DNA of 64,000 nucleotides from Psilocybe cubensis (Eukaryota): the NCBI GenBank assembly GCA_017499595.2, contig CM039010.1:1860001-1924000 (forward strand). The letters run 5' to 3'. This document shows positions 7,901 through 49,401 of the stretch, in pieces. The notes beneath the pieces are model-generated. The model worked only from the letters and a program-made list of their open reading frames with translations. It was not told where the DNA came from and searched no databases. The position numbers were made by a program, and so were the translations under genes. The stretch's first letter is position 1, and each line of letters starts with the position of its first letter.

Positions 7901-7931
7901 GATATGTCAATGGAAGAGTCTTGTGGAGATA
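4927..7931 (+). pseudogene. Gypsy D pol, part 1 (RT, RNase H, integrase N-terminus)
   Basis: LPMGWTNS, PYIDDV, VVETDAKYL, HGPDGLSR, AHNHNGHR and CYRCQER, with many stops. Confidence 0.92.
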
Positions 7932-10562: not shown

Positions 10563-10564
10563 TC

Positions 10565-10582
10565 TGGAGCCCACCGCAAGGG
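10565..10582 (+). promoter_or_regulatory. Gypsy A PBS, probably tRNA-Lys(CUU)
   Basis: TGGAGCCCACCGCAAGGG is complementary to a tRNA-like 3' end ...GGGCU-CCA, the ending of yeast tRNA-Lys(CUU). Confidence 0.65.
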
Positions 10583-10757
10583 AGGGTTAATTAGGATTTT
10601 GTATTAGGAACACAGCAATCTACCACTTTATCACTTCCATTCCATCCATTTCGACTCTTTTTCTTTACAGGTTATTTTGCTTCTCTGGTTTATTCTCTAG
10701 GCAACTTTAGGCAACAATTCTAGGCAACACTTTCTGACTCTGTAACTGGTTTACGCT

Positions 10758-16445: not shown

Positions 16446-16718
16446 CCATCAACTAAATAGGCAGTAGATTACAATGCTATGTAAACCAATACAATAAATT
16501 TTTAGTCTTACAAATCCACCCAATTTTTGGGGCCTGGTTTACATTGTCAAGCAATATCTTTATTAACTTTACAATATCCAAACAATTATTTGTTTTACCC
16601 TGCAAATTCAAGTAAGAATTTTTGTATGTTTATGACAAGTCTGGTTGACCGGCCATTACATAACCGGTTGACATAGGGGCCGTATGTCTTGGCCCGGCAC
16701 GTGTGTTAAATATAACAT

Positions 16719-19914: not shown

Positions 19915-20105
19915 AGCACCTGCACCTGCACCCCCTTGTGCACCTGCACCCGCACTCCCTCGTGCACCTGCACCTGCACCCCCTCGTACACTCACACCCG
20001 CACTCCCTTGTGCACCTGCACCTGCACCCCCTCGTACACCCACACCCGAACCTGCTCGTGCACCCACACCCGGACCTGCATCTGCTCAAGCACGCGCACC
20101 CTCCT
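19915..20105 (+). repeat. Coding minisatellite (GCACCT-based, PAPAPPRA)
   Basis: Repeated GCACCTGCACCCCCTCGT units are visible. Confidence 0.9.
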
Positions 20106-21045
20106 CCCCCCGCCCCAGATAATGTGTCTGCACCAGTGCTTGCTAAAGCATTTGCAGCTGTTTTACTGGCGGAACCTGTTCCTAAACGAGTCTCCCGTTG
20201 CCAAATGACATTAAACACGATTAGGATCTCTTCAGAATTCCCCCTGACCTCCCTTCCAAGGATTCTTCCTCTTTTTCTTCCAAAAACGAACGCTCCCCTT
20301 TCCTACCAGCCCCGATCAAGATCAAAGTGCGTTTTCACTTGAGATTGGTTCATTACACTAATATTATGATTAGCTCCATGCAAAGAGGAAAGTGGCGCCA
20401 TGCCGCCCTGGTCCAAAGCGTAAAGACATGAGTGTATTTATTATATTCTCTATCTAGGGCTCATACATATTAGCTACAGGCACCACCTTCAGACCCCTTC
20501 GAGACCGGGATGAGGCCCTGCCTACTCCCAATTCTGACGCCACTGCCGCCAACGGTAAAGAACCACCAGCTAAAAAGGCCAAGAAAGGTGCCCAGCCCAA
20601 GGAAACGCGCCAACCTGTCAGGGCAACACTATAATCAGTGTGACAAGGCCACCAACAAAGATCAACAAGAGAGAGAGAGAGAGAGCAGAGGGAGAATAAG
20701 AGAGTGAGAGAGACTCAATGATTCTAAGAGATCACACCAATGATAGTGGATATCCTAAGAGATTGAAGCTGAAGCTACAGCTACCTACAAGTCCAGTATT
20801 TATACTCTACAGCTATTCTAGAATATTCCCTACATTACATCATAAAGGAAGGTTAAAGAATAAAAGTGACATCATATAGAAAAAGGATGAGTAAGACTAG
20901 GAATTATATAGAATTTACTAGAAAGAAGTGGAGCAAGAAGGCTGTGATGAAAGAAATAAACTATCTAATCAGATAATTGATAAGATAATGAAAGGATAAG
21001 ATAATTCTGTGAAGATAAAGAGGGGAAACTGGAGAAACCCTGACA

Positions 21046-27430: not shown

Positions 27431-27434
27431 TATG

Positions 27435-27707
27435 TACACCCGCCATCCAATTTCACGGTTCCATCCCATTTTCGGAAGGCTTATTTACCATCGTACCCAG
27501 ACAACCCGGTTATCCTCTTCTTACCATTTCGCTTTCGTTACCCTTCACAATCCACACCATCCTAATCTACTTAAATCCTAGGCAGTGTCCTCCCTTAAGA
27601 AACTTAGGAGAAGGTTTCGTCCTATCCAGTCTGGACCACTCTTTCCCTGGGGTTTGTGTTTGTTGGATTACTTATAGTTTATAACCAATCACAAACTTTG
27701 ATCTTCA
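27435..27707 (+). repeat. 3' fragment of a Gypsy A LTR
   Basis: Near-identical to ~10290-10562 and ends at the same TCTTCA. Confidence 0.93.
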
Positions 27708-29288
27708 CCGTGCATGATGAAATAAGCATCACATAGGTCCTAGACCTAGCGCGCGCTCAAGGCAAATTACAAACCTTAATTTATTGCACTCCACAATGAC
27801 CAACCAAAGATATTGAAGTAACCGTCACCAGACGGTATGACTAAGCCCTCGGCCTCAAAGCATCTATCCGAAACAGTATTGTACTCTCCAAGTGCTGCTA
27901 CGCAGTGTTCTGGCAAGCCGGCATGTAAAGCCGACAGCCTGATGCTACCTGTATGCCAAGAGACGGAGAAATGAAGGAAGAATTATTAAGAGCTCCTAGT
28001 CAGAATAAGTTGCCGGCTTGAGTATACAATTGCACATTGCTGATGTAATCACTGACTTAGACGAATAAGAGCGCTTATATGCTCGGATGAAGGAATGAAA
28101 ACCACCGCCTTGCGAGTCTGACTCGCTATGCGCAGTAACCTTGTTACCAATTCTTGTTTGTATAATGTAATATTAGTTAGTCAGGTCTCCATTTCTCAGT
28201 AGTACTCATAGTATAAATTAAACCATGTCATGTAGTGTAAGGACAAGCAATCTTATACCCAAGAATTGAGAGTACAGATTTAATCTGCATCTTTGCGTTC
28301 CCCAGTGTGATCAATTGTTTCGCGGACAAGCTCGTCATCTAAGAGAAGAAAGACCGAGTGTAGTTCACCTGGATTTGAATATATAAGTGCTTTGGTTCAT
28401 TAAGCGCTCTTGTATTGCAAGTCAAATATTCTATACTTTCTAAGTTAATTCTTAGGAGGTGACCAGGGCAAGAGGCTACTGGCGTAGGTCTGCCAGTTCT
28501 TCTTAGAGGGAAGAGCTCCTACACCGTTTCATTTAGCCAAGAGGGCACCTGTAACTTTGAGGGTTGCAGTTTTGTATTGTCTAGGACTTTGAGGGTCCAC
28601 CCACAAACTATAAGAGAATCTCATCTCTGAACAAGACCACTATACACTGAAGGGACTTGAAGGAAGCGTGTGCGCACACAAATCTAACAAGCGCTCTTAC
28701 TTGCATTTGGCGATTGAGTTGAATTAGATTCTTACCAAGTGCAACAACGTGCAGCATAGTGCACATCACCCCACACATTAGTTCTTTTGAACGTGAAGCT
28801 TTTCTGTAGAGTGTATTAATAGCTCTGCTCCCCTCCCAGTGACGAACATCATTGTTACAGCAATTGACTTGGGAATTGCACTGTCACCCCAAGCAAGACA
28901 TATTATCTAGAGCCCACCACAAGGGAGGGTTATACTTCAGAAAAGCTACGCTTTTAAAAGAAAGAAAAATTTATAAAAACAACAAGCTCTGTTGACAGAA
29001 CTCAAACATAAAAACATAAAATCACAATAGCTAAAAGCTCTTACAAGGGTTTTAAGCAAACTACAAAGAACTCCAGCTCGAGAGGAGATCTTTTAGTTTT
29101 AAAAGATCCATCCAAGCAAATTAGAAAACCCAGAGTCAAGACTGAGCCCGTTGAACAAGTTATCCCTAAGTGGACAGCTTCTATGTTAGAGCTCTTATTT
29201 GAATTACCTTTTGAGACCGTAGAAGATCTTCAAACTCTCTACTACAGTCCTAAAGTCAAACCTAGCAGCAATACTGTTCAGGACTCGT

Positions 29289-30453
29289 AAGGACCAACAT
29301 GGTAAGGTATTGCATAAGTACCTGGGCACCAAGGACGAACACAATACCTATGAGGCGGAAGCAGTGGGAGGCCAGCAGGCCTCCAAGCTGATACAAAACA
29401 AAGAGACAACACCCAGCAACAAGATCGACATCTTCAGTAATAATCAGTTGCTTCTGAGGAATCTAAGCTGGCCCAAAGCTAAGTCAGGTCAACAAATAAT
29501 GCTGGACATTGATAAAGCTTTTTGCACCTTGCAGGGTAGTATCACCGTACACTGGATTTTGGGCCACTCCGACGTGCTGGAGAACGAACGTGCTGACGAG
29601 GAGGCCAAACAAGCAGCCGAGGGAGATTCTTCGCCCATAGATGAGCTACCCACACCATTAAAAACATTGATAAAATGCAGTGCCTCGGCAGAGAAACAGG
29701 CATACCAGGAAGAGCTGCTGACAATCTGGAGAGATCGATGGAACTCGTCAAAAAGAAAGGCCCAATTCGCGTCAATAGACACAGAATTCCCCTTCAACAA
29801 ATACCGGAAAGCCATGAAGAACCTAAATCAGACTCAAGCCAGCGTGCTGATACAGGTAAGATCAGGACATATCCCGCTGAATAACCACCTCAGCAGGATC
29901 AATGGCAACCAAGACAAGCACTGCCCAAAGTGCTACAAGAGGAGAGGTGGACAGCAAGCAGTCAAGACAGTGAGGCACTTCATATTTGAGTGCAAGGGTT
30001 ACCAATGCCAGCAGAGGGAGCTATGGGAAGAACTGGGCAAACACTGCTCAAACCTGGAGGAACTCACAACCAAACACAACCACGTCAAAGCGCTATTACG
30101 ATTTATTGCAAAAACAAAACGGCTACGACCCTATAAAGAAAACTTACTAAAAAGAGGAGTAGAGGAAGAGGAAGGAAACTAAATGGGCGACAGACCTACA
30201 AAACCTCAAACTGAGTCAAAACACGAGCTTGTAGAGTTGGAAGATAGCCTACCAAAGGCCGGAGATGCCACCTCAAACAGCCTGGAAGAGGCTGGGCTAG
30301 GAGGGGGGACGTGAGGGCCCCCCTTAGTGCAGAGGGGATTGATGAAAGCCAAAACGCTAATGGAGCGTAGTAGGTAGTTAGTTAGTAGTAAGCCAAGGGA
30401 GGGGCCCACCCCTCAGAGGCTATAACACAAAAAACAAAAAAATAACAACAATA
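29289..30453 (+). mobile_element. 5'-truncated non-LTR retrotransposon (Tad1-like): RNase H, Zn finger, A-rich tail
   Basis: ORF 29310-30182 has YEAEAVG, VHWILGHSDVLENERADEEAK, QVRSGHIPLN and CPKC..TVRHFIFEC; A-rich tail at ~30424-30453. Boundaries are approximate. Confidence 0.88.
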
Positions 30454-30454
30454 T

Positions 30455-31846
30455 ATGCTATCTTTCCCAATCCCAGACAGCCACAATGTGCCCAAGTTTG
30501 TGCCTACTAAACTGGCAGAGCTCTTGAGGTTTATTGACCAGATGGAGGATTTATACAAAGAACATAAGATAACAGATGATAAAAAAAAGATAGCGCGCTT
30601 AGGAAAGTACGCATCTGCAGACACAGAAGAAGAATGGAAAGCATTTGATTTGTTCAGAGGCAATAGTTGGGATGCATATAAACAAGAAGTGATTAGCAGT
30701 TATTCTGCTGCCACTAATCTAGTGCATGGTTCCTACTTAAAAATCAAGAAAATCTGTGCACCATATGTTGGAAGGAATCGCATAACATCTGACGACATTA
30801 GCAAGCTCTTAAAGTTGAAGCGAGCTTTTGGAGCGGCTGCAGCAAAGATCATGAAAGATCCGCCACTCATTTCAAACCAAGAAGTGGTAGAGCTCTTCTT
30901 AGGGTGTTTGAGTACTTCATTCAGGACTCGAATCCGTGACAAGATGGATGACGCCTTGGACAGCAGGAGATTAGCCGCAGAAAACTTGGTTGGAGAAGAG
31001 CGCAAAGCTGCGTTAGCAAAGTTAGAAACGCGCTTAGATGATCGATATTGTTATTCAGATGTAATTGCGATGGCAATCAAAATAGTGGATAGAGTGTCAC
31101 AAGCTTCTGCTATGGCAATTGACCTGACCGATGACAGGGATGATGAGGATATTCCGAGAGAATATACCAAAGAAATTAAGAAGGAATATAATAAGGCAGA
31201 TGATGTAGTGCCTAAAATTGAAGAAGCTGTCGCGCAGATTAGCAATATGCTTAACCTTCTAATGAAGAAAGAAGCGGCTAGGGACAAGCAGAATGAGCTC
31301 TTTGATAGGAAGTTCAATTCGCTGCAGAGTTCCTTGGCTAATTGAAAGCAAACTTTAGCGCCTCCACCAAGAGCACCTAATTTTGGATATACCAATAATG
31401 GTAATTCCTCTTATAATAACCCCGGATTTGCGCCTAGATTGCAGCCTCAGTCTATCATTGGGTGTTTTTATTGTAGAGACTTAACCCATAGGATTAGTGA
31501 GTGCCCGCTCGCAAAGCAACATGAGAAAAATAAGTGGATTATTAGAGATGGAGGCAGAGTTTACAACATAGATGGTTCCCGAATTGCTCAAGATGGAAAC
31601 AAGAGCATAAAGGAAGTAGTCAAGCAAAGAAACGCACCTAGACTAGGTGTGATTCCAATTGCTAAGTTGCCACCTCAACCTGGGTTTTTCCAAGATCAGG
31701 AGAATGATGATTATGAAGTCGACAATGGGGATATACAGATAGCTCGCATAATGACAGCGCTCTTACAACAACATGGTCAAGACACAGTAGAGCGGGTAGT
31801 TACAAACCTGTATCTGACCAACAATGATAACCAAAATTTTTATTGA
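30455..31846 (+). pseudogene. Gypsy B gag
   Basis: FPIPDSHNVPKF start and knuckle CFYCRDLTHRISEC; one in-frame TGA at 31343-31345. Confidence 0.85.
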
Positions 31847-34800
31847 GTTTGAGGAAGGGTCGCGTTGCTCGGAATGTGTTACTCACAACCCGCTTAGCAA
31901 CTAAAAATCTGGAGAACAAAAATGCAAATAAAAAGGTTACATTCAAAGAAACAGAAAACAATGAAGGCAGTGTTGAAGAAGATGAACTGGATGATGAAGA
32001 AGAAAGCCCACCTATGAAAGTAGGGCCTCCAAAGCATCAGAAAGTCGAAGTCGTGATTCCTATCAGAAGAGCGCTTACCAAGAAACCGGAAGTTGCAGTG
32101 CCAGAGACAGTTACAACGCCCAAGAAAGAGAAAGTACCTGAAATTCTGTTTGTAGGGATACCTCCTATTGAGATAGTAGAGCGCCTGACGGATACAGACA
32201 AACCTACACTTGATACTCCAGTAGTCAAGCCAGGCCCTGCATATAGAACAAGAGAACCTATCAAAGCAGAGGTGGAAGCTGACAATATAATTGATGAAAT
32301 ACTGGATTTGAAAGTAGGTGTGCCTCTCAAGCAACTTGTAGGCAATACACCTGCAGTTAGGGAAAGACTCAGGAAGAGATTTACCAAAACAAGACAAGCA
32401 TTGTTGCAAGAAACTAAGAGCGCTTATGAGCCTTATGCCGAAGACATAGAATTAGATTGAGATATCACTGGATTACCAGTATCCTCGTTTATATTAGCGT
32501 CTGACGTGAAGGATGACACATGAATGGAACCTAAATGGAAAATAGGAGCGGATCCATTTCTGCAGTTTGCACAAACACACTGCACAAACGCACAATGGAG
32601 CGCTTCCTAGAGAAGCTTTATCAATGGCTGATACCTGTAATCTTAGGGTAATATACCCCAGAATTAATGGTGTTGGGCAGGAAGAAGCTATCCTGGATAG
32701 TGGTTCACAAATAGTTTTAATGGCAGAAAATGTGGCAGTTGAATTGAGTCTCACATGGAAACCCGCCATTACTATTAACATGCAGAGCGCTAATCAATCT
32801 GTAGACCGTGCATTGGGTCTTGCAGAAAATGTAGCTTTTAGCATGGGTGGTGTAACAATTTATCTCCAAGTTCACATTATCAAGAACCCTGCTTATCGAG
32901 TACTATTGGGACAACCTTTCAATAGGTTAACAGCATGTAATGTGAAAACTGAAACTGATAGAAGTACTGTGATTACAATCACAGATCCTAATACTGAAAG
33001 AAAGGCAACTGTACCTACCTATGAAAGAGGCAGAGGTCCAGAAGAGCTGCAGAAGAATAAATTTGCTGCTCAGTCTTTTTAGACAGCCTTGAGGAATTGA
33101 TGCCAGATCAAGGAGAGGCTGCCTTATTATTCGAGCTCGATGAATCAACTAAGACAATCTCCTTAGCTGGGTATTCATTAGTGCGCGAAGAAAAATTTAC
33201 TGAAACTGGAGTACGGAATACTTTCCTATCTCAACCTATATACAGTGAAGATATGGATTTTGGAGTGAAGAAGAAACTTGAGAGTTATTTACATCAAATG
33301 ACTCCATCACAGCCAGACAAACCTAGGAGCGCTTACCCAAGTGCCTCTGTTTTTGTAGGCAAGAAGTATAAATCAGTCGCTCTGAAAGTGAAGCTAGTAT
33401 ATGCAGAGTTACCTGATAACTTTTGCATAAAAAGAGAGATTAAGGGGGACCCATTGGCTGAAATGCCAAAGCTAAATCCCAACCTTCCTGACTTCACACC
33501 AACCAGTAGATACACGCAAGAGCGCCAAGCTGCATTTGATAAAGTGCATAAGGGAGATTTTTTATGGGCAGAAGAGCGGAAGGCTGTACACCATTTAATG
33601 ATGCAACAGAACAAAGCTTTTGTCTGGGATGATAGTAAAAGGAAACAGTTCAAAGAAGAATATTTCTCTCCAGTGAAAATTCCAACTGTAGAGCATGAAC
33701 CATGGGTTTATAAAAATATACCCATACCACCAGGATTGTTTGATGAAGTCTATAGAATTATCAGGTCAAAACAAGCGTCTGGGGTATATGAAGAGTCAAA
33801 CTCGTTGTTCCGCTCTAAGTGGTTCACTGTAGTCAAGAAAGATGGAAAAAGTCTATGCATTGTGCATAGTCTGGAACCATTGAATGCAGTTACTATCGCT
33901 CATTCAGATGTGCCTCCAGCTATGGAAGACTTAGCTTCACACTTTGCTGGAAGAGCGTGTGGGGGCATGTTTGATTTGTATGTTGGGTACAATAAAAGAA
34001 AATTAGACGAGTCGTCAAGAGACTTGACCACCTTTCAGACGCCTTTTGGTGCAATGAGACTGACCACACTACCCATGGGATGGATCAATTTGGTACCCAT
34101 CTTTCATGATGATGTCATGTACATCCTAAGAGATGAGATACCTGAGTTCACTCAACCGTATATTGATGATGTAGCGGTTAGGGGACCAGCATCTTGGTAC
34201 CAAAGTGAAGATGGCAGTTACACGCTCTTACCTGAAACCTCAGGAATAAGAAAATTTGTCTGGAAGCACTTACAAAATGTGAATTGTATAGTCCAACGTA
34301 TAAATATGCTGGTGGTATATTCTCAGGGACTAAGTCATTAGTCTGTGCAGATGAGATTGTAGTAGTAGGGCATGCTTGTACTATGGAAGGAAGGAAACCT
34401 ACGACAGAACATGTAAAAGCAATTATGGACTGGGTGGAATGCAAAAACGTCTTAGAAGTAAGAGCATTTCTTGGAGTAGCTAGTGTATTGCGAGCATACT
34501 GTATATCCTAGGCTATGCAAAGAGATCAAGAGTACTTCAGAAATTAACTCATCAAGGGAAAACCTTTGTATGGGGACCTGAACAAATTGATAGCATGAAA
34601 GCAGTAAAAGATGGAGTGAGAAATGCTCAGTGTTTGAAACCCATTGACTACTATGGTGAAGAAAATATAGTATTGGCAGTGGATACTTCTTACATGGCTA
34701 TTGGGTATTACATCTATTAAGAAAAGAAGGATAATCTAAAGGAACATAATTATGTGAAGTTTGGATCTATTGGATTGAAAGATCCTGAAGCTAGGTACTT

Positions 34801-36867
34801 ACAGCCAAAGCACGAGCTCTTAGGAGTCAAGTCTGCTTTGAAGAAAAACAGGCATCTATTAATAGGAGCGCGCAAGCTAGTTGTTGAGACTGATGCTAAA
34901 TATATTGCTGGAACATTGCAAAATCCCAACATGATGCCTAATGCAACTATAAATAGGTGGATAGAAGAAATAGGACTATTTCACTTCACATTAAGGCACG
35001 TAGCAGGAAAGACATTTGGACCAGATGGATTGTCCAGGAGGTCTAGACAACCTAATGATCCGCCGCTTGATGATGACGAGGACAGAGAGTTAGAACCAAG
35101 TGGACCTCTGCTGTTAGAAATTGTGAATTCCGAGGATCCGCTACCTCTACCAATCAAAGAATTTGTAAAGATATTGATACTTGTGGGGGATATTTGCAAA
35201 CCACTAAACAAGAGCTCGAAATTGATGCCAAATATGTGGGTTTAGCAAGATTAGAAGAAGATTTTGAGCAAGAGCTCTTAAGTACAGAATTAGCAAGAGC
35301 GGAAGAAAGAGCTTGTTTAAACAAGCATATAGAGGTAAATGGGAATTGTATGGGTCGAGAACGCACTGTATATGTGCAGCAACTAGTCGCTACCCTAGCG
35401 TTACCTGAAGAAACTCAAGTATCAGAGACGGAAAAAGAAGCGCTCTTAGAGCAGCGTAGCGAGAAAGCAAAAACATATGATGAACAGTTAGATGATGTAG
35501 TCTTATGGCATAAAGATCATAGTCATTGCCCAAGTGGACTGACCAAGAAACGGCAGGCCGCCTTCGTACAATTTGCAAGGCAATTTTGTACAATGAAAGA
35601 CTATATTACAGAAATAATGGTGCCACACATCGGTTAGTGGTGAAACCTGATAGAAGGATGTACATGTTGAAGGCAGCACACAATCATGTAGGTCATAGGG
35701 GATATTATGCTACTAGTCAGCTGTTAATGCAGAGATTTTGGTGGCCAGAGATGGAGCGCAATGTGAATTGGTTTGTTAAGAGCTGTCATCTTTGCCAAGA
35801 GCGGCAGAAGGTTATGGTCAAAATCAAACCAACTATCACACATACTCCATCTATATTCCAAACTATGCATGCTGATACGCTCAACATGTCCCCCGCATCA
35901 AATATGTAAATGTTCACATATTGTGCACAGAAAAGACGTGCTTACCACATGGATAGAAGGGCAACCGCTACAGCGCAAAACTGGAAGATTAATTGGTCAA
36001 TGGTTATGGGAAGACATTATTTGTAGATGGGCTTGTATGTCAGAGCTTGTAACAGATAATGGTGGACCTTTCTTAGCCGCGGCTAAATGGTTAGAGTCAA
36101 AATATGGAATTGTAGAAATTAGGAACTCACCCTATAATTCACAAGCAAATGGAGTAATAGAAAGACCTCATTAGAATGTACAACAAATGTTGTATAAAAT
36201 GTTAGGAGAAAAGAATGTGAAGCAATGGTATCACTTTTTCCACTACATCATGTGGGCAGATAGGGTCACAATCAGGAAGCGCCTAGGGTGCTCACCCTAT
36301 TTTATGGTGACTGGAAGTCATCCCATACTACCATTAGATGTGAAAGAAGCAACTTGGTTAGTTGCACCACCAACAGGTATTATGACAGAAGAAGAGCTCT
36401 TAGCTTCCAGAGCAAGAGCGCTAGCCAAACACAAGTTACACATTAATGAGATGAGAGCGCGTATTAATATACAAAAGTTAGAACAATTGCAGAAGTATGA
36501 AAAAGACTATGCAGCTGTAATACGCGACTATGATTTCAAAACTGGAGATTTGGTATTGATAAGAAATACAACAGTGGAAAAGTTGCTTAATAAGAAAATG
36601 AAATCAAGATATTTAGGACCTATAATTGTAATTCGACGAACTAGAGGAGGATTCTATATTGTGGCAGAAATGAATGGTGCAGTTTTGCAGAACAAAGTTG
36701 CAGCATTTAGGGTATTACCCTACTTCCCTAGAGAGAAGATAGCTATGCCAGCCAATATTCAGGATTTAATTGATATCTCAGAAGAAGCACTATTAGAAAT
36801 TGAGCAAAACGAACCTACAAGCAAGGACTTAGCCTTTAAAGGGGTAAAATTAGACCCAGAAGACTAA
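31843..36867 (+). pseudogene. Gypsy B pol (protease, RT, RNase H, integrase)
   Basis: AILDSGSQ, PYIDDV, VVETDAKY, AHNHVGHRG, CHLCQER, LVTDNGGPF and RYLGP. Confidence 0.94.
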
Positions 36868-37985
36868 GCGCGCTTATGGTTATGAGTGGGGGTACGATAT
36901 TTATTAGTAGGAAAGGTGAATGTACATGAGCTACATTACAAAAAACCTCTAGTGAACTAAGCGCTCTTATGCGGCCTTGGTACAGACGTCAGGCGCCAAC
37001 TCCAATTGCTTCAACAACACATTGCGTTGTTGATGAGCAATATAGATCCGACCTTCTATGTCCTGGATCTAGGAGCGGATAAGGATGACAAGTTGCTTGA
37101 TTGCCTCGCTATCCTGGATTTCCAAGAAAGGATTGGCAACTGGTTGATCCAAGTAGCCGGCAACGATGCTCAAAACAGAAGTAGTGGCAGGTTCTAAAAA
37201 TATAAGAAATAAATTTAGAAAATGATAATAAAAATAAATGCATACCGTCAATGGGCAACGATCCCTCCTTGGCATTGGGTTGCTCGGTGCGAGCACGTTT
37301 ATGAGGATTGTTGACGTAACGGGCAGCCTTGAGATAAGCAGTGGAATTAGTATCCATACCAGGAACTGAAGTGTACTCAAGAAGAATCACCTTGGGGTGT
37401 TTTTTGTTTAAACAAAAAGCCTACGACAATGACAAAAAAGTCAGAAAGAGAAGACAGAATATTAGGAGCGCCTAACCTTGGGACCATTGGGGATGGGCTT
37501 GCGAGCATATTTGCCCTTGGGACCACCTGAAGCACAAGTGCTAGAGGCAGGTCCAGTCGTCTCTTTAGTGATGGCAGAAGTGGTAGTGACATGGGTAATG
37601 ACATCGTTAGCAGCGTTGATAGCAGCCGCGGCAGTGGCCGGGTTGTCGTCAACGGCCATACTCTACAATTGCAAGTTGAGAGAATATAAGTGGGTGGATA
37701 GAGAATCTGCTACCTCATCCTGCTCCTCCTGTGAAGAAGTGAGCTCAGGCTCACTGAGGGTAGATGAAATGAATTCCACCTCATTAGAATCCTCAGCGAT
37801 AGCCTTGGATTTGTAGAGCCGGTTACCATGTTTGGTTACCTTAAGAGCTCTTAGTCTAAGAGTGCGTATGATGGCATGGAGACTCACATTAGTGGCAGTA
37901 CGTGGTTTAGCAATATTACCGCACGCAGCTTTGATACCACGAGTGAGCTCCTTCCAGATGAAGTACTCGGGCTTGAAAGCCACTA

Positions 37986-40900
37986 GTACCTACCACTTTA
38001 TTTAATATAACTTGGGCACTTGCCCTGCACACCTGTTTATATGGTGCCCACCTTTTTTAGATGCAAAATATATATCATTATAGGCCAAGCTATATTATAA
38101 ATCTGTATCATAGCTGCCCAAATCTGTATCATAGCCACCCAAATCTGTATTATATTTGCCCAAAGTTTGTATCATAGCCACCCAAATCTATATCATAGCT
38201 GCCCAAAGCTTGTATCATTGATTTTAAAAGCTATATTATTAATTTCCGGAGCTGCATCATTAATTGTCCAAGAGCTACATTATTCTTTTTTAGATTACTT
38301 AATGGCTGCATCATTCTTTCTAGATTACTTAATAAAATGATTCTGATGTCATTGATCTGATTAGAAATAGGCTTTGGGCCATCATTGATGGATATAACAT
38401 CATGCTCAATTAGGGTTCTGGGCCTTTCCCTTTGCCTTGGCCCCTAGCTCTATAAATAACACTCATCCTATGCTATTTTTGTGCATTGCTGGCAATGGAT
38501 TGGGCGCTTTTGGGGGCATTTCTGGACCGTTTCCCTTGGTCTTTTTTGGTAAACCTATAGTTTCAAGGTGTCCCAATCCGAATATAAAATTAAAATTGCA
38601 ATATCTTTACTCATTACTGTGCAATTAAGTGTACAATGTTTTGGTCAAAAGGCGCACCTTGAATAGCACCCTCCAGGAGTTGGTATTCACCCTTTTGACT
38701 ATTCCATTATTTTTTATTTATGTTAGACGGAGTATATGCCAAGTTTTAGCTTAATTGGAGCAGTGGAACCTATTGAACTGGAATGTGCACCCTACCCCTC
38801 CTCCTACCCCTTGTATAAATGCCTTCCTGACCAGATAAATTCAGGCCCAGCTAGGAATGGTTAGGCGAATATTATATCAATTTTTAAAGCTCTTAATCTT
38901 AATCAAATTCTAATATTGGATGGTACCATTCCCCATCCTTCCCAAATTTTGTGTATTTTATTATAGCATAGGATGAGCCTTCAGACCGTTAATAGACATG
39001 TAAATCCAACACTAAAGGTATCTACAACCCAAAACTTATTCTTGGAAACCCTCTGTAGCAAGGGAACATACTGATTAAAGGGGGGTATGAGGAAAGGTAT
39101 AGTAGGTTGTTGATCAGGCCATATCTTTACAAATACTTTGTCATAAATGATATTTTTGACGTTTACAGATACCTATAGTTTCCCCCTAACTATCATTCTT
39201 AAGCTGCAAAAAGATCCATCCATGAGATGAGATGCTGTAGAGGGAATACCATTCTTCATCAAAATGCACAGTATTTTTGCATTTACCATACATAAATGAT
39301 CATAATCAGAAAATATAAAAGCAGGATAATATTGCCCTAAAATTTAGCTTTCCAGAACATTAAGGATGTTGTGCATCGGACCAGTGGTTGTTGAGATATG
39401 GAAAGAAAGGTGTTAAAGAATCTATCAGAGACCCGGATGGATATTGGCCTTTATTTATGCTTTGTTTGTGGTCACCTCTTTAGTCTTTCTCCGAGATACA
39501 TTTTGACATATCTCAGCTCATACTTATCGGATTTCCATGAGTGTATATACCACAGATAGGTGTCATTTGGGGCTACACAATCGTATTATATTTGTATTTT
39601 TTGGGTGTTATCTTGCCCATCATATTTTGCCTTTTCGCTATTTTTAGACAATTTTGCTTATTCTTCTTGTATCATTTTGTGAGGTGCTCTGGCTGTTTAG
39701 CACACTAAATATAATATGTAGAGGACCGTAATAGCTATCAGTAGATGTATAATATGAGGATTTTGGTGAAGTATAAGCGGTGATATGCTCATATTAGGGT
39801 GGAAACCTAATGTCTTTTTGTTGACCTCATAACCAAGGTTTTCTTCTTCATCTAGAATGTTTCAAAGGTATGTATTGTGTTACTGGTACTGTGTAAGACA
39901 GTTTTACATACTTATATGTGCTGGAAATGTCTATTCTATCCTGTAATAAAATATATAATTTCTGGAGGGAATGGAGAATGATACCCTTCAATCTTAGAAT
40001 TTGATTAAGATTAAGGGCTCTAAAAATTGATATAATATCCGCCTAACCAACCCTAGCTGGGCCTGAATTTATCTGGTCAGGAAGGCATTTATACAAGGAG
40101 AAAACCCTCTGTAGCAAGGGAACATACTGATTAAAAGGTGGGTATGAGGAGAGGTATGGTAGGTTATTGATCAGGCCATATCTCTACAAATACTTTGTCA
40201 TAAATCATATTCTTGACGTCTATAGATACCTATAGCTTCCCCCTAAGTATCTTTTTCAAGCTGCAAAAAAATCCATCCATTATATGAAATGCTGCAGAGG
40301 GACTACCATTCTTCATCAAAATGCATAGTATTTTTGCATTTACCATATATAAATGATTATGATCAGGAAATATAAAAGCAGGATAGTATAGCCCCAGAAT
40401 GTAGCTTTCCAGAACATCAAAAATGTTGTGCATCAGACCAGTGGTTGCTGAGATATGGAAAGAAAGGTGTTGAAGAACCCATCAGAGACCCGGATGGATA
40501 TTGGGCCTTTATTTATGTGTTGTTTGTGGTCACCTATCTAGGGTCTCTCCGAGATACATTTTGACATATCTCAGCTCATACTCATTGGATCTTCATGATT
40601 TTATATACCCCAGATAGGTATCATTTAGGCCTACACAACTGTATAGTCAGTATAATTTTTGGGTATTGTTATGCCTATCATATCTTGCTTTTTTGGACAA
40701 TATTGCTCATTCTTCTTGTACCATCTTATTAAGCACTCTGGTCATTTGGCACCATGAATATAATATGTAGAGGACCTTGGTAGCTATCTGTGAATGTATG
40801 ATATGTGCATTTTGGTGAAGTATAAGTGGTGATATGGTCATATTATGTTGCACATCCAATACCTTCTTTTTAGCCTCATAACCAGGGTGTTCCCCTTCAT

Positions 40901-42077
40901 CCAGAATGCTTCAAAGATATGTATTGCATCTGTGGTACTATATAGAGCATATCTACATACCTATATGTGCTGGAAATGGCCATTCTATCCCATAATAAAA
41001 TATACAAGTTCTGGAGGGAGTAGGGAGTAGTACCCTTAAATCTTGGAGTTGCACCAAGATTTTGGGCTCTAAAAATTAGTATAATAGATGCCTACCCAGC
41101 CCCAGTTAGGCCTAAATTTATCTGATCAGGAAGGCATTTATACGAGGGGTAGAAGGAGGGATAGGGTGCACATTCTAGTTCAGTAGGTTCCACTGCTCCA
41201 ATTAAGCTAAAACTTGGCATGTACTCTGTCTAATATAAATAAAAAAATAATGGCATAGTCAGAAGGGTGCATACCAACCCCTGGAGGGTGCTATTGAAGG
41301 TGCGCTTTTTGATCAAAACATTGTACGCTTAATTGCACAATAATGAGTAAAGATATTGCAATTTTGATTTCATATTTGGATTGGGACACCTTGAAACTAT
41401 AGGTTTACCAAAAAAGACCAAGGGAAACGGTCCAGAAATGCCCCCAAAAGCGCCCAATCCATTGCCAGCAATGCACAAAAGTAGCATAGGATGAGCATTA
41501 TTTATAGACCCAGGGGCCAAGATCAGAATGTCTATTTAATAATAGTTTTGATAGAGCTGATGGCAGGATCCAGAATTAGCCAGGGTTTTCCTGAATTGAT
41601 GGCATCATATCACAAATGACCAAGCACAGATAAGATACATGCTTATATCTAATCAAAAAGGAATGAATGATCTCATTCCAGCATGTGGTAACCTACAAGG
41701 AATGATATGATCTAGCATTTATTGCATTTCTATAGACTACAGTAGCCCTAATGATTTTGCTCTAGGGTATGGTAGCTTACAAGCAATGATATTATATAAT
41801 ATTTACTACTCTTCTGTGATTTACAATGATCTTAATGATCTGATTCCAGAATGTGGTAGCTTACAAGCAACTATATGATATCTTATTGACAAATTACTGT
41901 AGATTACAAGCCTTTTAATGATTTGCAATTACTTAGCTGTATTACAGTATTGAAAGATATATCATTTAGCTATAACTTATAGCAATAATCCATGATTTCA
42001 TATCATTAAAATGTGGTGAAAATGCACATCGCCATGTAGGCACTCAGCACATTATGATTGATTTAAGTGGCAGCTAC
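37986..42077. mobile_element. T2: non-coding foldback-like TIR element (~4.1 kb)
   Basis: Imperfect TIRs GTACCTACCACTTTA / GTAGCTGCCACTTAA in the palindromic target ACTAGT; internal inverted arms and a ~1056-bp tandem duplication. Confidence 0.8.
38099..38220. repeat. 21-22-bp tandem repeat, about six copies
   Basis: AAATCTGTATCATAGCTGCCC units. Confidence 0.9.
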
Positions 42078-45000
42078 TAGTGCAGAAGGAGCAGCGGCTT
42101 GAGCAACTGGAATTTGATCCAGTAGAAGGTTGTCAAGCGCGTTGTTAATAAAGACAATAGCGGCCCGATTGGAGGGAAGCCAGGGGTTGGCGTTGGTGGA
42201 ATTGGCGTGGGCGTTTGTGATACAAGCAAAGAACTTGGGGGGCATGATGAGGGAGTGATAAGAGGGTTAAAAAATTCAAAGTAAGAGCTCTTTTATAAGA
42301 GCTCTACAATAAAAATTTGGAGTGCGCCGCCATCAATAGTGAACTTGCTACCACAGAAACAACAGAAAAATCCTAAGTCAAAACTCACATGGCTTGTTGG
42401 CCGTACCCACAAATTAACTGAGTAATGATGTAGTGAATAGAAAACATAACATATGCTGTGCAATTAGAAGCACGTACTGCACCAGTCTGACAGAAGTCGA
42501 AATATCTTATAAAAGTTTATTACAATTAAGCTTTGGCCAGTTGCAAAGTATTAGCGCGCTCAGCTATGACGGGAAAATTTGATACACCCGTTATACCGTT
42601 GGAAAGAGGAGATCAACCGCTTTCTAATGGTACAAGAATCAGCAAATTTGAACCAGAATTGAGTACAGGAAGTACAAACAAAGTGCTTGCAATGCAGCGC
42701 AATACATCACATGGCTATGATGACACACGTCGGACATCAGATGCAACAGAATCCAGACCACGGCAATTGTTGGACACCAAGTACCGGTGCTGTGCAGTTG
42801 CTGGATATGGTGTAGAGTCACATGTGTGGACGCATCTCCTACCATATTAAGTAGTATGCTTAGGAGCCACAGCAAATAAGCATGCATACGAGCGCTTAAG
42901 CTGCAGAATTAAATAGAAAAATAGAATTAAACAGAATAGACAAACTTGACTACATTATCATGACACAGAATCAGCACACAAATTGGTTGAGAACAATGCT
43001 GAAAGAAGGAAAGAAGTCATAATTATACAGACAGGTTGACTGGAGACAGTCAATATCTAAGTTGGGGGGAGATGAAGAGACAAGGAATTGTCTACGCATG
43101 TAAATGCTGAATTTTTAGCATTTCTCATGTATACAAGTACACGCTCTTACGTACAAAGGACGGGAGAAACCATCTATTAGACGAGAATTATGATGTTGAA
43201 GGGTGTGTTGCCGCTATTGATATAGCTATACACAACTGGGTACAGAGTAATTTACGCCGAATCAGGACTACTATCTATAGTAGACATGCGTATGACAGCT
43301 GAGAACCTGGGGAAGCAACAGCAACGGTGAATAAGAGATCGTACACTAAGCGCTCTTACCGCTAGTACCTGATTAGGCATTACCTACCTAATGGGGACAA
43401 AACCTTGCTTAGTACCTTGAAGCTAGAATCGCATGTTCTCTGTAGGTTCTTGTGCATGATGAAATAAGCATCACATAGGTCCTAGACCTAGCGCGTGCTC
43501 AAGGCAAATTACAAACCTTAATTTATTGCACTCCGCGATGACCAACCAAAGATATTGAAGTAACCGTTACCAGACGGTATGACTAAGCCCTTGGCCTCAA
43601 GGCATCTATCCAAAACAGTATTGTACTCTCTAAGTGCTGCTACGCAGCGTTCTAGCAAGCCGGCATGTAAAGCCGACAGCCTGATGCTACCTGTATGCCA
43701 AGAGACGGAGAAATGAAGGAACAATTATTAAGAGCTCCTAGTCAGAATGAGTTGCCAGCTCGAGCGTACAATTGCACATTGCTGATGTAATCACTGACTT
43801 AGACAAATAAGAGCACTTATATGCTCGGATGAAGGAATGAAAACCACTGCCTTGCAAGTCTGACTTGCTATGCGCAGTAACCTTGTTACCAATTCTTGTT
43901 TGTATTGTATAATGTAATATTAGTTAGTCAGGTCTCCATTTCTCAGTAGTACTCATAGTATAAATTAAACCGTGTCATGTAGTGTAAGGACAAGCAATCT
44001 CATACCCAAGAATCGAGAGTACAGATTTAATCTGCATCTTCGCATTCCCCAGTGTGATCAATTGTTTCGCAGACGAGCTTGTTGTCTAAGAGAAGGAAGA
44101 CCGAGTGTAGTTTACCCGGATTTGAATATATAAGTGCTTTGGTTCATTAAGCGCTCTTGTATTGCAAGTCAAATATTCTGCACTTTCTAAGTTAATTCTT
44201 AGGAGGTGACCAGGGCAAGAGGCCACCGCCATAGGTCTGCCAGTTCTTCTTAGAGGGAAGAGCTTCTACACCGTTTTGTTTAGCCAAAAGGGTACCTGTG
44301 ACTTTGAGGGTTGCAGTTTCATATTGTCTGGGACTTCGAGGGTCTACCCACAAACTATAAGAAAACCTCATCTCTGAACGAGACTACTATACACCAAAGG
44401 GACTTAAAGGAAGCGTGTGTGTACACAAATCTAATAAGCGCTCTTACTTGCATTTGGCGATTGAGTTGAATTAGACTCTTACCAAGTGCAACGACGTGCA
44501 GCATAGTGCACATCATCCCACACATTAGTTCTTTTGAATGTGAAGCTTTTCTGTAGAGTGTATTAATAGCTCTGCTCTCCTCCCAGTAACAAACATTATT
44601 GTTGCAGCAATTGATTTGGAAATTGCACCGTCACCCCAAGCAAGACATATCAACGTTACCATTTGGCTGTTGATGCTGACTTAGTTCCATCAAAATTGAA
44701 CCACATCATCTAGCATATGGAATCTAGTAAAGTATTGAGGCATAGAGCAGCATTCTTAATTGCTTGAAGAAGACAACCTGGATAATGAACCAATATGGCA
44801 TTTGTCTAAATTTTCACAGATGGCTTTGACAATTCTTTTTGACTTTTCTTCAACTGCAACACACTGGACAGACCACTTAAACCATTTTGTACATCTTAGC
44901 TTTTAAGACAATTGGGGTTGTATTATTTGTTAGAACTTGATGCAGATGGCAAAGAAGATCTTGAGGCACGACCAAAGATATTCTATTGAGCTAGATAGTT

Positions 45001-46105
45001 TACATACATTTTTAATCTATCTTGTTGCTACAGAGCCAGTCCAATTCCCCTGAAAAATACCTTTTGGTTGCCCATTAGATAACATCATTTTTTGTGATTT
45101 TTCACGAAGATCTACCACAGGATTGGTCTTTTTTTCTTTGCTGGCCTTTCTTTAGGTGGCATTTTGTCAATTTTTTTTTGAGAAAACGGCTTGATAAAAT
45201 TTTTTGAAAATCTGGAATCATATATAATTCTTTGAGATCTATCCAAAAACAATATTTCCAAGATTTTAGCAAATTGTTTTGGATTTGGCAAAATTTTTGG
45301 GCCTATTTAAACTTAGAACCGGATTTCTGAGGGAAGTTTTTATGCAAACAAAAAACTAATTGCATATTCTAATTTGCATTTGCATCCTGCACGTTTCTAT
45401 CTATAATATATGGTGGCAGAAAAAATTTGATGTCTTCATGTGTCCCCAACTATAGTAACAGATAACAGTGCACCCTTTGTGGCAGCACTGAAGTGGATTA
45501 GTGACAAATATGGAATCAAAAGTATTAAGATATCACCTTATAATTCCAAAGCAAACAGCTTAATTGAGCAAGAGCATTAAGACATAAGACAAATGCTCTA
45601 TAAAATGCTAGAAAAAGAAAACATTCACAAATGGTTTTGGTTCTTAACCTTCATTTTCTGGGCAGACCAAGTCTTGATCAGATGGCAGATGGGCTGTTTG
45701 CCCTACTTTATGGTTACCGCTGCCCATCCAATCCTGCCACTAGACGTTAAGAAAGCCAGCTGGCTTGTCCAACCACCAGATAGACTGCTGATGGACTTGG
45801 AATTGGTAGCCTTTAGGGCACACGCACTGATAAAACACTGGTTGCACATAAACCAAATGAGAAAGAGAATGGATGAAGAAAAATATAGAAGACTATTTAA
45901 ATATGAGTCAGATAACAAAGTGGTTATCAAAGACTACACATTTGCACTGGGAGACTTGGTCCTGGTATGCAATACAATGGTAGAAGGTTCCTTGGACAGG
46001 AAAATGAAACCAAGGTACCTGGGACCAATGTTGGTAATTAGACAGACAAAGGGAGGGTCATACATTGTGTCAGAACTTAATGGTGCCATGTGGCAGTCTA
46101 AAGTA

Positions 46106-47710
46106 CAGTGGGCAAAAAAAACCGTTCGAGTGTTGGTCACGTATGAAAAGATTAATTTATAACTTTGAAATTAAAAATGTTAAAAATATGAGATTATTCA
46201 CAGATATACTATATGGTGTTAGCTAAAGGATGACACACTGATCATGTGATTTGTCCAAGAATTGACCAAACAGCAGCATACACAATTTGCTAAGTCATTT
46301 GAACAGTTTTTTTGCTAGTAATTTAAATGCTATAAACTATGTATTATCACATGACTTTGTTGATATACCAAACAACTATCAATAAAATCATGTGACTACA
46401 TGTTGAATAGGTATATAATAGCTACAACCAACCTCTTTATCCCCCAATCAAGCATGAAACCCCTCTCTAAAGCAACTATTGCTACTATTGTCTCTCTTCT
46501 TACTTTTGGTTACTCCTATGCCTCTATCAAGGCCCAGACTGGAGCTAGTACTGGTTCTATCACCAAGATTTGCCAAGACTACTGTCCTGAGGCAGTGGTT
46601 TCCCATGGAGGACGCCCAAAGAAGCTGACTGGTGCCAATATCACCTATACCAAGCGTGGAATTTGAACTGGACAAATCAAGAATGCTGTGCAAGCTGCCA
46701 AGTCTCTGGCTACTATTAATGGCCAGAATATCAGTCCTCAAACAGTTAGGAATGCACTCAAATCAACTGGCATGGTCTCAGTGGCAAAACAAAAGAAGCC
46801 TTTGTTATCAAAAAAGCATAGGAGGGCTAGATTGGAGTTTGCAGAAAGGCACTTGGAGTGGACTGTGGATGACTGGGCAAGGGTCTGGTGGTCAGATGAG
46901 ACCAAAATCAACAGATTGGGTTCAGATGGAAGAGATCAGGTGTGGATAGACAAGGAAAACAGACAGGACCCTAGGAGGATCAAGCAAACTGTGAAGTTTG
47001 GAGAAGGAAACTTGATGATGTGGGGTTGTATGGGATGGGAAGGAATTAGATTTGCCACTAGAATTGATGGGAAGATGGATGCTCAGTTATACACTGAGAT
47101 CCTAGGTGATGAGCTCCTAAAATCCTTGGAGTAGTATGGTCAACAGGTAAAAGATATCCACTTTCAGCAAGACAATGACCCCAAGCACACCTCAAAATTG
47201 GCCAAGAAATGGTTTGAAGAGCAGAATTTTAGGGTCCTCATATGGCCTGCACAATCTCCAGATCTCAACCCCATTGAACATCTATGGGAATACCTCAAAA
47301 GAAGACTTAATGAACATGAAGTCCCACCAAAGGGTATCCATGAACTTTAGGAGAGGGTTGAGAAGGAATGGAATGGAATACCCAAGGAAGTGGTGCAGAA
47401 TTTGATTGCTAGCATGCCTAGAAGGTGTGCAGCAGTGATTAAGGCCAAGGGTGGACATACAAAGTACTAGTAGATATGATTTATTGATACTCAAGTATTT
47501 AGCAAAAAAACTGTTTGAATGACTTAGCAGACTGTATATGCTCCTGTTTGGTCAATTCTTGGAAAAATCACATGATCAGTGTGCCATCCTTTAGCTAATA
47601 CCCTCTAGTATACCTGTGAATAATCTCATATTTTTAACATTTTTAATTTCAAAGTTATAAATTAATCTTTTCATACGTGACCAACACTCAAACAATTTTT
47701 TTGCCCACTG
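46106..47710 (+). mobile_element. Tc1 transposon, 1605 bp, ~210-bp TIRs, TA TSD
   Basis: TA|CAGTGGGCAAAA ... TTTGCCCACTG|TA. Confidence 0.97.
46454..47470 (+). pseudogene. DD34E Tc1 transposase (338 codons, three stops)
   Basis: [14 protein letters not shown] and [11 protein letters not shown], with 34 residues between the second D and the E. Confidence 0.95.
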
Positions 47711-49401
47711 TAGGTGCTTTCAGGATAGTACCATATTTTGCAAGAGAAAAGATTGCAGTACCTACAAAAATAACAGACATCCTAGATACTTCAGAAGAAG
47801 GATTGCAACAAATTGAAGCAGCACCCAAGGAAGACTATGTTGCCGCTCCAGAATGGGACATGACGCTGCTCCATAACAATGATAGTAAAGACGAGTAAAA
47901 TTTCACAAAAATACAAGACTGACAAACTACATGACATGTATTTCTACCTAAAACCTTGTAGAACGATGAAGTGAATCTAGACTGGGGCGCTGCCTTTGGC
48001 TTTGCAAAGCAAAGTGACCTATTTTTTGTTTTTATGACCAATGTGATTAAACTAGCATTGGGCAAAAGCACAACAGAACTTGAAATCAGCACAGTCAAGG
48101 CAAAGGAGTGCGAGAGCCTTCTCCACGACAGAGATAACCGGGTTACCACCTTGATTGGCAACTACAATAAGGACAACATCAATAGTGATACAAAAAATAG
48201 AGAATAGGTGATAGTAACAGCTTACCAGAGGGTTTAACACAAGGCTTCTTGCTGTTAGAGTCGATGCCAACCTCTTCAAAATCAATAAGAGTGACTTTAG
48301 CGCACTGTGTTAAAAACATATGGTTTAGTTTGAGAATGAGAGGTGAACAAGAAAAGAAACAAACCTTAGAACCATCATTCCCAATGGGGTTTGTACCTGG
48401 AATAGTGCAGATAGGTGGAGGGATGACAGAGGTAGGCACTAGTGGCTTGGCCAAAGGTGGGATGGGATTACCGGAATCCGTAATGATTTTGACAATGTCC
48501 TCATCAACTGACATGCCCTGCATACTGGCGATGAGTTTGTTGAATGACCATTTAGATGTGCGACATTGCTTTACCTCATTATTCTGCAGCATTAGTAAAG
48601 AATGGTGTGAGCTAGAAAAGAAATAAATATACTCATTTCCGAGTCAATGACAGCCTTGGACTTGGGTATCTTGCAAGTGCGCTGGCAATATGACACATTC
48701 CAGTTAGTTAGCAAAGAACCCAACAAACAATAGACTAGAAACAGACTTTGGCTTTGGCATGAGGAGTGACTGCAGAAGTGAGGGTGCTAGCAGCAGAGGG
48801 TGCCGGACCTGGTGCAGGAGGAGGAGCATTGGGAGCAATTACTGACACCGGCTTGCAAAACTGGTGAATGGCCTTGCACAAATTGGCGACAAAATAGTAC
48901 TCCCAGGGCATCTTGATAGTCCCGGAAACTTGTGCATTTTGAACGGCCTGGTAGTGTCAGAGTTTCTCCAGTTTCCCCTCTTTATCTTCCAGAATTATCT
49001 TATCCTTTCATTATCTTATCAATTATCTGATTAGATAGTTTATTTGTTTCATCACAGCCTTCTTGCTCCACTTCTTTCTAGTAAATTCTATATGATTCCT
49101 AGTCTTACTCATCCTTTTTCTATATGATGTCACTTTTATTCTTTAACCTTCCTTTATGATGTAATGTAGGGAATATTCTAGAATAGCTGTAGAGTATAAA
49201 TACTGGACTTGTAGGTAGCTGTAGCTTCAGCTTCAATCTCTTAGGATATCCACTATCATTGGTGTGATCTCTTAGAATTATTGAGTCTCTCTTACTCTCT
49301 TATTTTCTCTCTGCTCTCTTACTCTTACTCTGCTCTCTCTCTTTCTTGCTTGATCTTTGTTGGTGGCCTTGTAACACTGATTATAGTGTTGCCCTGACAG
49401 A

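Follow-up and report, generated by a model that had tools for sequence, protein, structure and literature searches.

Does the region between pol and the 3′ long terminal repeat (LTR) of a Ty3/Gypsy retrotransposon of Psilocybe cubensis hold a gene of its own, read against the element that carries it? The question is raised by a 64,000-nt stretch of assembly GCA_017499595.2 (contig CM039010.1, positions 1,860,001 to 1,924,000, forward strand), here called the window, whose coordinates are used throughout, and by one element in it, Gypsy B. Downstream of the Gypsy B pol gene lies a minus-strand reading frame split by another transposon, T2. Here, we report that this frame is genuinely coding, or a recent remnant of coding sequence. 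We give about an even chance to its being a decayed antisense accessory gene of Gypsy B, of the layout known as aORF-3R (antisense open reading frame [ORF], pol to 3′ LTR).

The gene runs on the minus strand, antisense to the plus-strand gag-pol, from an ATG at 42245 to a TAG at 37069 or to a TAA at 36967. Its parts, in reading order, are as follows.

42084..42245, minus strand: exon 1, 54 codons from the ATG at 42245, an open frame with an in-frame stop just upstream (codon delta, 0.15-0.60; frame profile)
37981..42083, no strand assigned: T2, a non-autonomous CACTA-type terminal inverted repeat (TIR) transposon plus one base or one copy of its target-site duplication (TIRs, internal repeats, depth)
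37888..37980, minus strand: exon 2a, reaching the T2 insertion site (sequence and codon profile)
37840..37887, minus strand: 48-nt intron, GTGAGT..AAG, in frame, stop-free and optional, spliced in the NCBI model
37714..37839, minus strand: exon 2b (NCBI model rebuild, codon score)
37663..37713, minus strand: 51-nt intron, GTAGCA..TAG, which holds an in-frame TAG (sequence)
37477..37662, minus strand: exon 3 (codon delta, 0.42-0.78)
37421..37476, minus strand: 56-nt intron, GTTAGG..CTGAC..TAG (the preferred coding frame changes here)
37246..37420, minus strand: exon 4 (codon delta, 0.35-0.62)
37194..37245, minus strand: 52-nt intron, GTATGC..TAG (the preferred coding frame changes here)
37072..37193, minus strand: exon 5, matching the public protein P0001 exactly (codon delta, 0.24-0.45)
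37069..37071, minus strand: in-frame TAG, a nonsense mutation or the true stop (sequence)
36967..37068, minus strand: same-frame continuation past the TAG, stop-free and ending in a TAA at 36969-36967 (codon delta, 0.29-0.38, above the null 95th percentile in two of three models)

The three GT-AG introns that a preliminary description had read from the sequence (37713-37663, 51 nt; 37476-37421, 56 nt; 37245-37194, 52 nt) were recovered as given. The 48-nt intron, being in frame and stop-free, is not required for an open frame. That description also held that removing T2 restores the frame, which is true of one excision and not of another. The two halves meet in frame (...AAAPS / AFKPEYF...) when 37981-42083 is taken out; these 4103 nt correspond to the ACTAGT..ACTAGT element and a single copy of an imperfect duplication of 3 bp, which reads TGC/GGC on the minus strand. 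If only the CACTAG..CTAGTG element (4102 nt) is taken out, the frame is shifted by one. The two frames that the 4103-nt excision joins were each identified separately by codon bias. As described earlier, the same frame is open as far as the TAA at 36967, but it is interrupted on the way by the in-frame TAG at 37071-37069. Because the stretch beyond this TAG still scores 0.29-0.38, the TAG is probably a nonsense mutation.

Is this coding sequence at all? Codon scores (in-frame minus off-frame codon log-odds, stop codons excluded) were calculated with tables trained on three independent sets, namely, the ORFs of Gypsy A, those of element C, and Gypsy B’s own gag-pol ORFs. The null set comprised 311 open frames of 35 or more codons in LTR, T2, and spacer DNA (standard deviation of the score, 0.15-0.18). 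Values are given in the order Gypsy A, element C, and Gypsy B.

Six exons together (286 codons): 0.62, 0.49, 0.32
True coding 50-codon chunks of the other two sets: 0.26, 0.28, 0.20
Null mean: 0.006, 0.017, 0.021
Null maximum: 0.60, 0.64, 0.46
Segments above the null 95th percentile, out of seven: 6, 7, 4

A 90-nt sliding codon profile, blind to splice sites, favored one frame from 37980 to ~37500, another at ~37440-37200, and the first again at ~37260-36960, and these changes coincide with the 56- and 52-nt introns, as the gene model requires. In exon 1, beyond T2, the profile picks the frame that joins. A cruder earlier score placed the annotated frame best of six in 6 of 7 segments, the remaining one (e1b) being narrowly beaten by a plus-strand frame.

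These figures bear on the possibility that there is no gene, only a construct of gene-finding software in which chance GT-AG pairs thread open frames through a non-coding spacer. Openness by itself would allow it: with up to three GT-AG introns of 45-65 nt permitted, the 878-nt stop-free spliced path was equaled in 14 of 1,000 first-order Markov resamples (p~0.014), two frames are open in several of the exons, and so is the opposite strand. Chance threading does not account for codon periodicity in the annotated frame that exceeds that of true coding chunks with all three training sets, for a preferred frame that changes at the introns, or for an exon beyond T2, unused by the NCBI model, that has the same codon signal and joins in frame. 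The evidence from codon periodicity is far stronger than that from the openness of the spliced frame, and we consider the absence of a gene very improbable.

The public record of this locus lends that alternative some further weight. The sole database relative of the protein is the NCBI hypothetical protein JR316_0013305 [Psilocybe cubensis] (246 amino acids; P0001), which a script rebuilt from the window with letter-for-letter identity, and which is therefore this same locus rather than a relative. In that model, the first exon (38078-38052), which supplies the start codon, falls within T2, as does a 62-nt “intron” (37990-38051), and the real first exon (42245-42084) is missing; the model is therefore truncated and chimeric, with a first exon visibly invented within a transposon. 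The P. cubensis genome paper, in the sections available, reports annotation by FunAnnotate v1.8.4 and contains no transposon analysis and no mention of transcript evidence for the annotation (PMC8220353). We assume that JR316_0013305 derives from that annotation; its locus-tag prefix is absent from that text. JR316_0013305 models a transposon-borne pseudogene and should not count as a host gene.

Where the gene lies follows from the anatomy of Gypsy B. The window is a nest of transposons, in which the Pfam matches of the long ORFs are almost all to gag, protease, reverse transcriptase (RT), RNase H, integrase, or Tc1-type transposase. The parts of Gypsy B are as follows.

27710..28903, plus strand: 5′ LTR (93.5% identity over 1199 nt with 43452-44650)
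30446..36867, plus strand: gag-pol, in ~11 ORF pieces, with its stop at 36867 (ORF list)
43059..43072, plus strand: purine-rich tract AAGTTGGGGGGAGA, candidate polypurine tract (PPT), with a TG at 43073 directly after it (read from sequence)
43073..44650, plus strand: 3′ LTR, probable full extent, first letters TG (homology to the 5′ LTR from 43452, depth, contig ends)

The gag-pol pieces matched the Pfam families aspartyl protease, RT_RNaseH, and Integrase_H2C2, and the ORF at 33061-34341 contains a YIDD motif. Depths given here are summed depths of the raw reads of run X11, placed at 80% likeness. The 3′ LTR probably starts at 43073, ahead of the LTR-LTR homology, because the purine run is followed there by TG, because depth climbs to 237 in bin 43025-43425, up from 84 in bin 42624-43024, and is then ~200 across the 3′ LTR, and because 43073 is the exact position of loose ends in contigs of run X1. 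No match to 43073-43451 was found upstream of 27710, and the 5′ LTR thus appears to be without its first ~380 nt.

The antisense gene sits inside the internal region of Gypsy B, downstream of the pol stop at 36867 and upstream of the PPT and the LTR, and, with T2 excluded, it fills the ~2.1-kb spacer between pol stop and PPT, convergent with pol. The location first proposed, between the end of integrase and the purine tract, is thereby borne out. An orphan host gene could in principle have come to lie between a 3′-truncated Gypsy B and a separate PPT-LTR fragment of the same family, and a nested region of transposable elements would be a setting for this: the 5′ LTR is truncated and a target-site duplication cannot be checked, a related Gypsy element in the same nest is split by ~37 kb of insertions, and the LTR depth, ~3 times that of the body, means that other LTR copies exist. 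Set against such a sandwich are a pol that is complete to its stop codon, with an AATAAA of the antisense gene only 33 nt away, a PPT directly before the LTR, LTRs that are 93.5% identical, as expected of a pair, and the unlikelihood of a unique, relative-less host gene within such a nest. We rate it as very unlikely.

Some further features of the element were recorded. Between the 5′ LTR and gag sits a 5′-truncated non-LTR (long interspersed nuclear element-like) fragment (29012-30182, plus strand) that has a Cys/His motif at its C-terminus and an RNase H-bearing piece at 29223-30182. Directly past the 5′ LTR, at 28904-28925, the plus strand reads TCTAGAGCCCACCA, which is the sense of a tRNA 3′ end and not its complement; a canonical primer-binding site is therefore not evident for Gypsy B. 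The 276 nt just 5′ of the truncated 5′ LTR (27432-27707) are 96% identical to 10287-10562, within a large element (8886-16460) with long plus-strand ORFs, one of which has DUF4100 and an RT related to that of Gypsy B.

How would such a gene be expressed? Two candidate signals flank it, both read from the sequence and of putative function.

42291..42297, minus strand: TATAAAA box, 46-52 nt before the ATG, between two AGAGCTCT palindromes
36900..36905, minus strand: AATAAA, which lies 62 nt past the TAA, with 33 nt separating it from the pol stop (candidate poly(A) signal)

The suggestion that the gene may be driven from the 3′ LTR region found no support. A distance of 828 nt separates the ATG from 43073, where the LTR probably starts; a promoter in the LTR is therefore unnecessary, and no observation favors it. 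The TATA box is itself ~780 nt inside the internal region. The palindromes beside the TATA box are related to a 13-mer, TAAGAGCGCTTAG, of which 23 copies (up to two mismatches, both strands; 27987-44446) occur in the window, all inside Gypsy B. The expectation by chance is 1.1 in the whole window, and 23 was reached in 0 of 100 shuffles. Gag-pol contains them in several frames; others fall in the LTRs and at the pol stop, and the antisense gene has them at its TAA, in its 48-nt intron, and upstream of it. AGCGCT likewise falls inside Gypsy B in 17 of its 19 occurrences. The palindrome could be a protein-binding site common to both promoters.

Before decay, the locus would have comprised a minus-strand gene of ~290-320 codons in five exons, occupying the ~2.1-kb spacer from pol stop to PPT, interrupted by four introns of 48-56 nt, with a TATA box of its own at one end and, at the other, an AATAAA abutting the pol stop. 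Its transcription and splicing are predicted. That antisense placement lets introns pass through reverse transcription, as proposed earlier, remains sound reasoning from the specificity of the spliceosome: on the genomic RNA, the introns read CT..AC, so they would stay unspliced, and reverse transcription would copy the gene intact as it moved with the element. By analogy with maize Grande gene23 and HBZ of human T-cell leukemia virus type 1 (HTLV-1), the product may have had a nuclear regulatory or adaptor role in retrotransposition, and/or the antisense RNA may have damped the element. More tentatively, and with the balance of probability against it, a basidiomycete Ty3/Gypsy lineage may possess an antisense gene dedicated to it, with several introns and a TATA promoter of its own. 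The palindromic motif TAAGAGC[GT]C.TTA, which recurs across the LTR and body of Gypsy B, would flank that promoter, and the whole would form a self-contained sense/antisense regulatory module of the Grande/HBZ type. If that is true, no antisense accessory gene with introns would have been shown in a fungal retrotransposon before.

Was the gene part of the family or only of this copy? Depths from run X11 are listed first.

33000-37811: Gypsy B body, 45-97
36609-37811: antisense gene bins, 45-68
42223-43024: further bins, 66-84
44629-45000: flank, 56
LTR: ~200, ~3 times the body

In contigs of run X1, depth was 0-6.6 over the body and 10-19 over the LTR, compared with 4.1 in the flank. Two runs presumed to be RNA, X13 and X14, placed 0 contigs on 33000-45000, which has no bearing on expression. 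Since body depth is about that of the flank, the internal region of Gypsy B is about single-copy, accompanied by a few extra LTRs. Depth over the gene (45-68) parallels that over the adjoining integrase bins (60-77). The copy is dead: T2 lies in exon 2, the TAG is in frame, gag-pol has ~10 frame breaks, and the LTRs are 6.5% diverged. The gene, with one break in ~960 nt, has decayed to an extent similar to gag-pol, with ~10 breaks in 6.4 kb, which is consistent with neutral drift since an old insertion.

A related family in the window is Gypsy B2, with 42-60% amino acid identity to Gypsy B in RT, RNase H, and integrase and ~58% in the integrase C-terminus. Its parts (4948-7961, 45452-46105, and 47710-47898) are split within integrase by ~37 kb of nested insertions. 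Those insertions include Gypsy A, element C, and Gypsy B, and B2 is split again by a Tc1/mariner-type piece (HTH_Tnp_Tc3_2 at 46667-47131).

With about one internal copy and no homologue at the same place in B2, a one-off capture has to be considered, in which a host or foreign gene entered this Gypsy B copy, or its immediate ancestor, at the DNA level and was never part of the family. Transduction is the usual explanation for antisense ORFs present in a single copy or a few, according to the portions of PMC7264820 and PMC11963269 available, and the introns, TATA box, and AATAAA are kept as they would be in a cellular gene. The locus itself fits this less well: the segment is without terminal repeats or a duplicated junction, the gene fits tightly from pol stop to PPT, and the palindromic motif of the element’s body and LTRs also flanks the gene’s TATA box. 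Neither the named P. cubensis record set nor the other databases searched yielded a donor or paralogue. We regard capture as rather unlikely, though it deserves more weight than the other alternatives, and return to the accessory gene. Carriage by a nested DNA transposon was also considered and was rejected, there being no terminal repeats, inverted or direct, bounding the region (best inverted-repeat score around the gene, 25, against a shuffle maximum of 28).

A word-indexed search with the protein returned 1 of 80 candidates in the longer class and 1 of 1,205 in the near class, each time the protein itself, and 0 of 18 in the shorter class. An exhaustive HMMER search of 1.84 billion representatives found only the protein itself and one repeat-inflated match, and 5.8 billion clusters held no related protein; no host paralogue is therefore visible. 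The match in question, P0002 (E = 2.8e-5; 30% over 54 residues), is a protein of 76-residue repeats and was rejected for that reason. Searches of PDB sequences gave a best E value of 0.99, and the Atlas structure search gave a best feature score of 0.78, with every TM-score at or below 0.35. Within the window, tblastn found no paralogue. Metagenome contigs queried with P0001 gave 92 pattern matches, with 0 confirmed; with the integrase C-terminus as the query, 1 of 99 was confirmed, a contig (L001) of 1072 nt with 42% identity, which is short and has no informative flank and no P0001-like sequence. The protein is of low complexity, with an acidic Ser/Glu tract and basic patches of the KRAR and KGKYARK types. 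It is an orphan, for the most part disordered, and its C-terminus looks helical. The sole other Pfam match, on the continuation at 36970-37068, was below threshold (14.1 bits versus a cutoff of 27) and was set aside.

Several results weigh against an accessory gene of the family and are gathered here. Truncation of the 5′ LTR leaves Gypsy B without a target-site duplication to check, and a single insertion cannot be proved in that way. With ~1 internal copy, presence in all or most copies, the usual mark of an accessory gene, is not demonstrable. In the post-pol region of B2, tblastx found nothing similar to the gene below an E value of 0.1, and all nine B2 post-pol ORFs tested fell within the shuffle range in Smith-Waterman alignments (in the lowest case, 36 of 300 shuffles scored at least as high as observed). 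Two introns have weak 5′ splice sites (GTAGCA and GTTAGG). P0001 matched 0 Pfam families, so that the protein has no family, and its Atlas model (pLDDT, 0.42; pTM, 0.14) has no confident fold; an orphan protein with a low-confidence fold would also be expected if there were no gene. To these is added the modest rarity of the open spliced path (14 of 1,000), given above.

Three collinear motifs seen by eye between the gene and the B2 post-pol region had no statistical support and were rejected. That region does contain a minus-strand ORF of 73 codons (48738-48956) with codon scores of 0.62, 0.41, and 0.35 (Gypsy A, element C, and Gypsy B tables), exceeded by 0, 6, and 4 of the 311 null ORFs, respectively. 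This ORF has no similarity to the Gypsy B gene and no Pfam match, and a 154-codon ORF beside it has an unremarkable codon score. That antisense coding after pol is a habit of the lineage, with fast-evolving content, is hinted at and goes no further than a hint.

Is the arrangement new? For fungi, Zhao et al. (2011; Virology 417:248) reportedly described an antisense gene, brtn, in the retrotransposon Boty, as is known through citing papers. Psilocybe Gypsy families have no description, nor has an intron-bearing antisense ORF in fungi or this element, in the literature searched, which was of limited coverage; the question of the preliminary description, whether the family is described, thus has a fungal precedent for an answer and no description of the family itself. 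The antisense 3′ ORFs of plant Gypsy elements to which it referred are on record. Antisense ORFs between pol and the 3′ LTR (aORF-3R) are reported from maize Grande, rice RIRE2, Silene Retand, and PvRetro13, and the Grande gene has its own promoter and a nuclear product (PMC7264820 and PMC11963269, here as throughout from partial texts). Outside plants, Boty of Botrytis cinerea and Sclerotinia sclerotiorum has brtn, which is listed as an aORF-3R (PMC7264820) and is cited also in excerpts of PMC8365987 and PMC4227169.

The Gypsy B gene is probably a further case of this already described layout. With the plant aORF-3R genes it has in common the position from pol to the 3′ LTR, the antisense orientation, an unusually long post-pol region, a product without clear relatives, and other repeats lodged in the spacer (PMC7264820, PMC11963269). 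With Grande it would also have in common a promoter of its own upstream, reported there and suggested here by the TATA box. It differs in that plant aORFs occur in all or most copies and across species, whereas the Gypsy B gene is in one decayed copy, and in that the TRP28 or SMC domains of plant aORFs are both absent from it (0 Pfam matches). Its host is a basidiomycete and not a plant. It also has four spliceosomal introns, whereas the word “intron” is absent from the main text of PMC7264820 and PMC11963269. Boty is likewise a fungal Gypsy element with an additional antisense gene (PMC7264820, in part). Boty is multi-copy and in an ascomycete, whereas Gypsy B is ~single copy and in a basidiomycete, and the two are likened by description only. 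With HTLV-1 HBZ, the gene has in common an antisense coding sequence at the 3′ end, splicing, predicted for the Gypsy B gene, and a proposed regulatory role (PMC7264820 and PMC11963269, in part). The HBZ promoter is in the 3′ LTR, in contrast to the TATA box of the Gypsy B gene inside the internal region, and the element that carries HBZ is a retrovirus, whereas Gypsy B is a retrotransposon. HBZ belongs to the bZIP proteins; no domain was found in the Gypsy B protein.

Antisense accessory genes have so far come from flowering plants and from Botrytis/Sclerotinia. If the gene is common to other copies of the family, those of LTR retrotransposons would extend to basidiomycetes, and the locus would illustrate in nature how antisense placement can carry introns through reverse transcription.

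The transposon that splits the gene is itself of the CACTA/EnSpm kind. Its termini, CACTAGTA[C/G]CT[A/G]CCACTT at 37981 and 42082, match at 16 of 18 positions, and both ends begin with CACTA, as TIRs of CACTA/EnSpm do. The interior has 21- to 22-nt subterminal repeats, 540-nt inverted arms (38436-38975/40981-41521; 88%) that make it foldback-like, and a 1.05-kb tandem duplication (39046-40098/40102-41147; 83%). No ORF longer than 83 amino acids, and so no transposase of the family, was found in T2, which would therefore be a non-autonomous member. Its read depth is 371-1281, compared with 45-97 for the Gypsy B body, and many reads have joints between T2 parts; the T2 family is therefore structurally variable and high-copy. 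The flanks give an AGC/CAG mismatch if the TIR begins at the C and a 2-of-3 match (GCC/GCA) if it begins at the A. Among the 15 joints listed, out of 55, none spanned 37980/42083, as a T2-free copy would.

Elsewhere in the window, a GCACCT-rich repeat of 24-nt period occupies 19892-20111; it comprises seven overlapping copies of a unit of 88 nt, and both of its strands are open.

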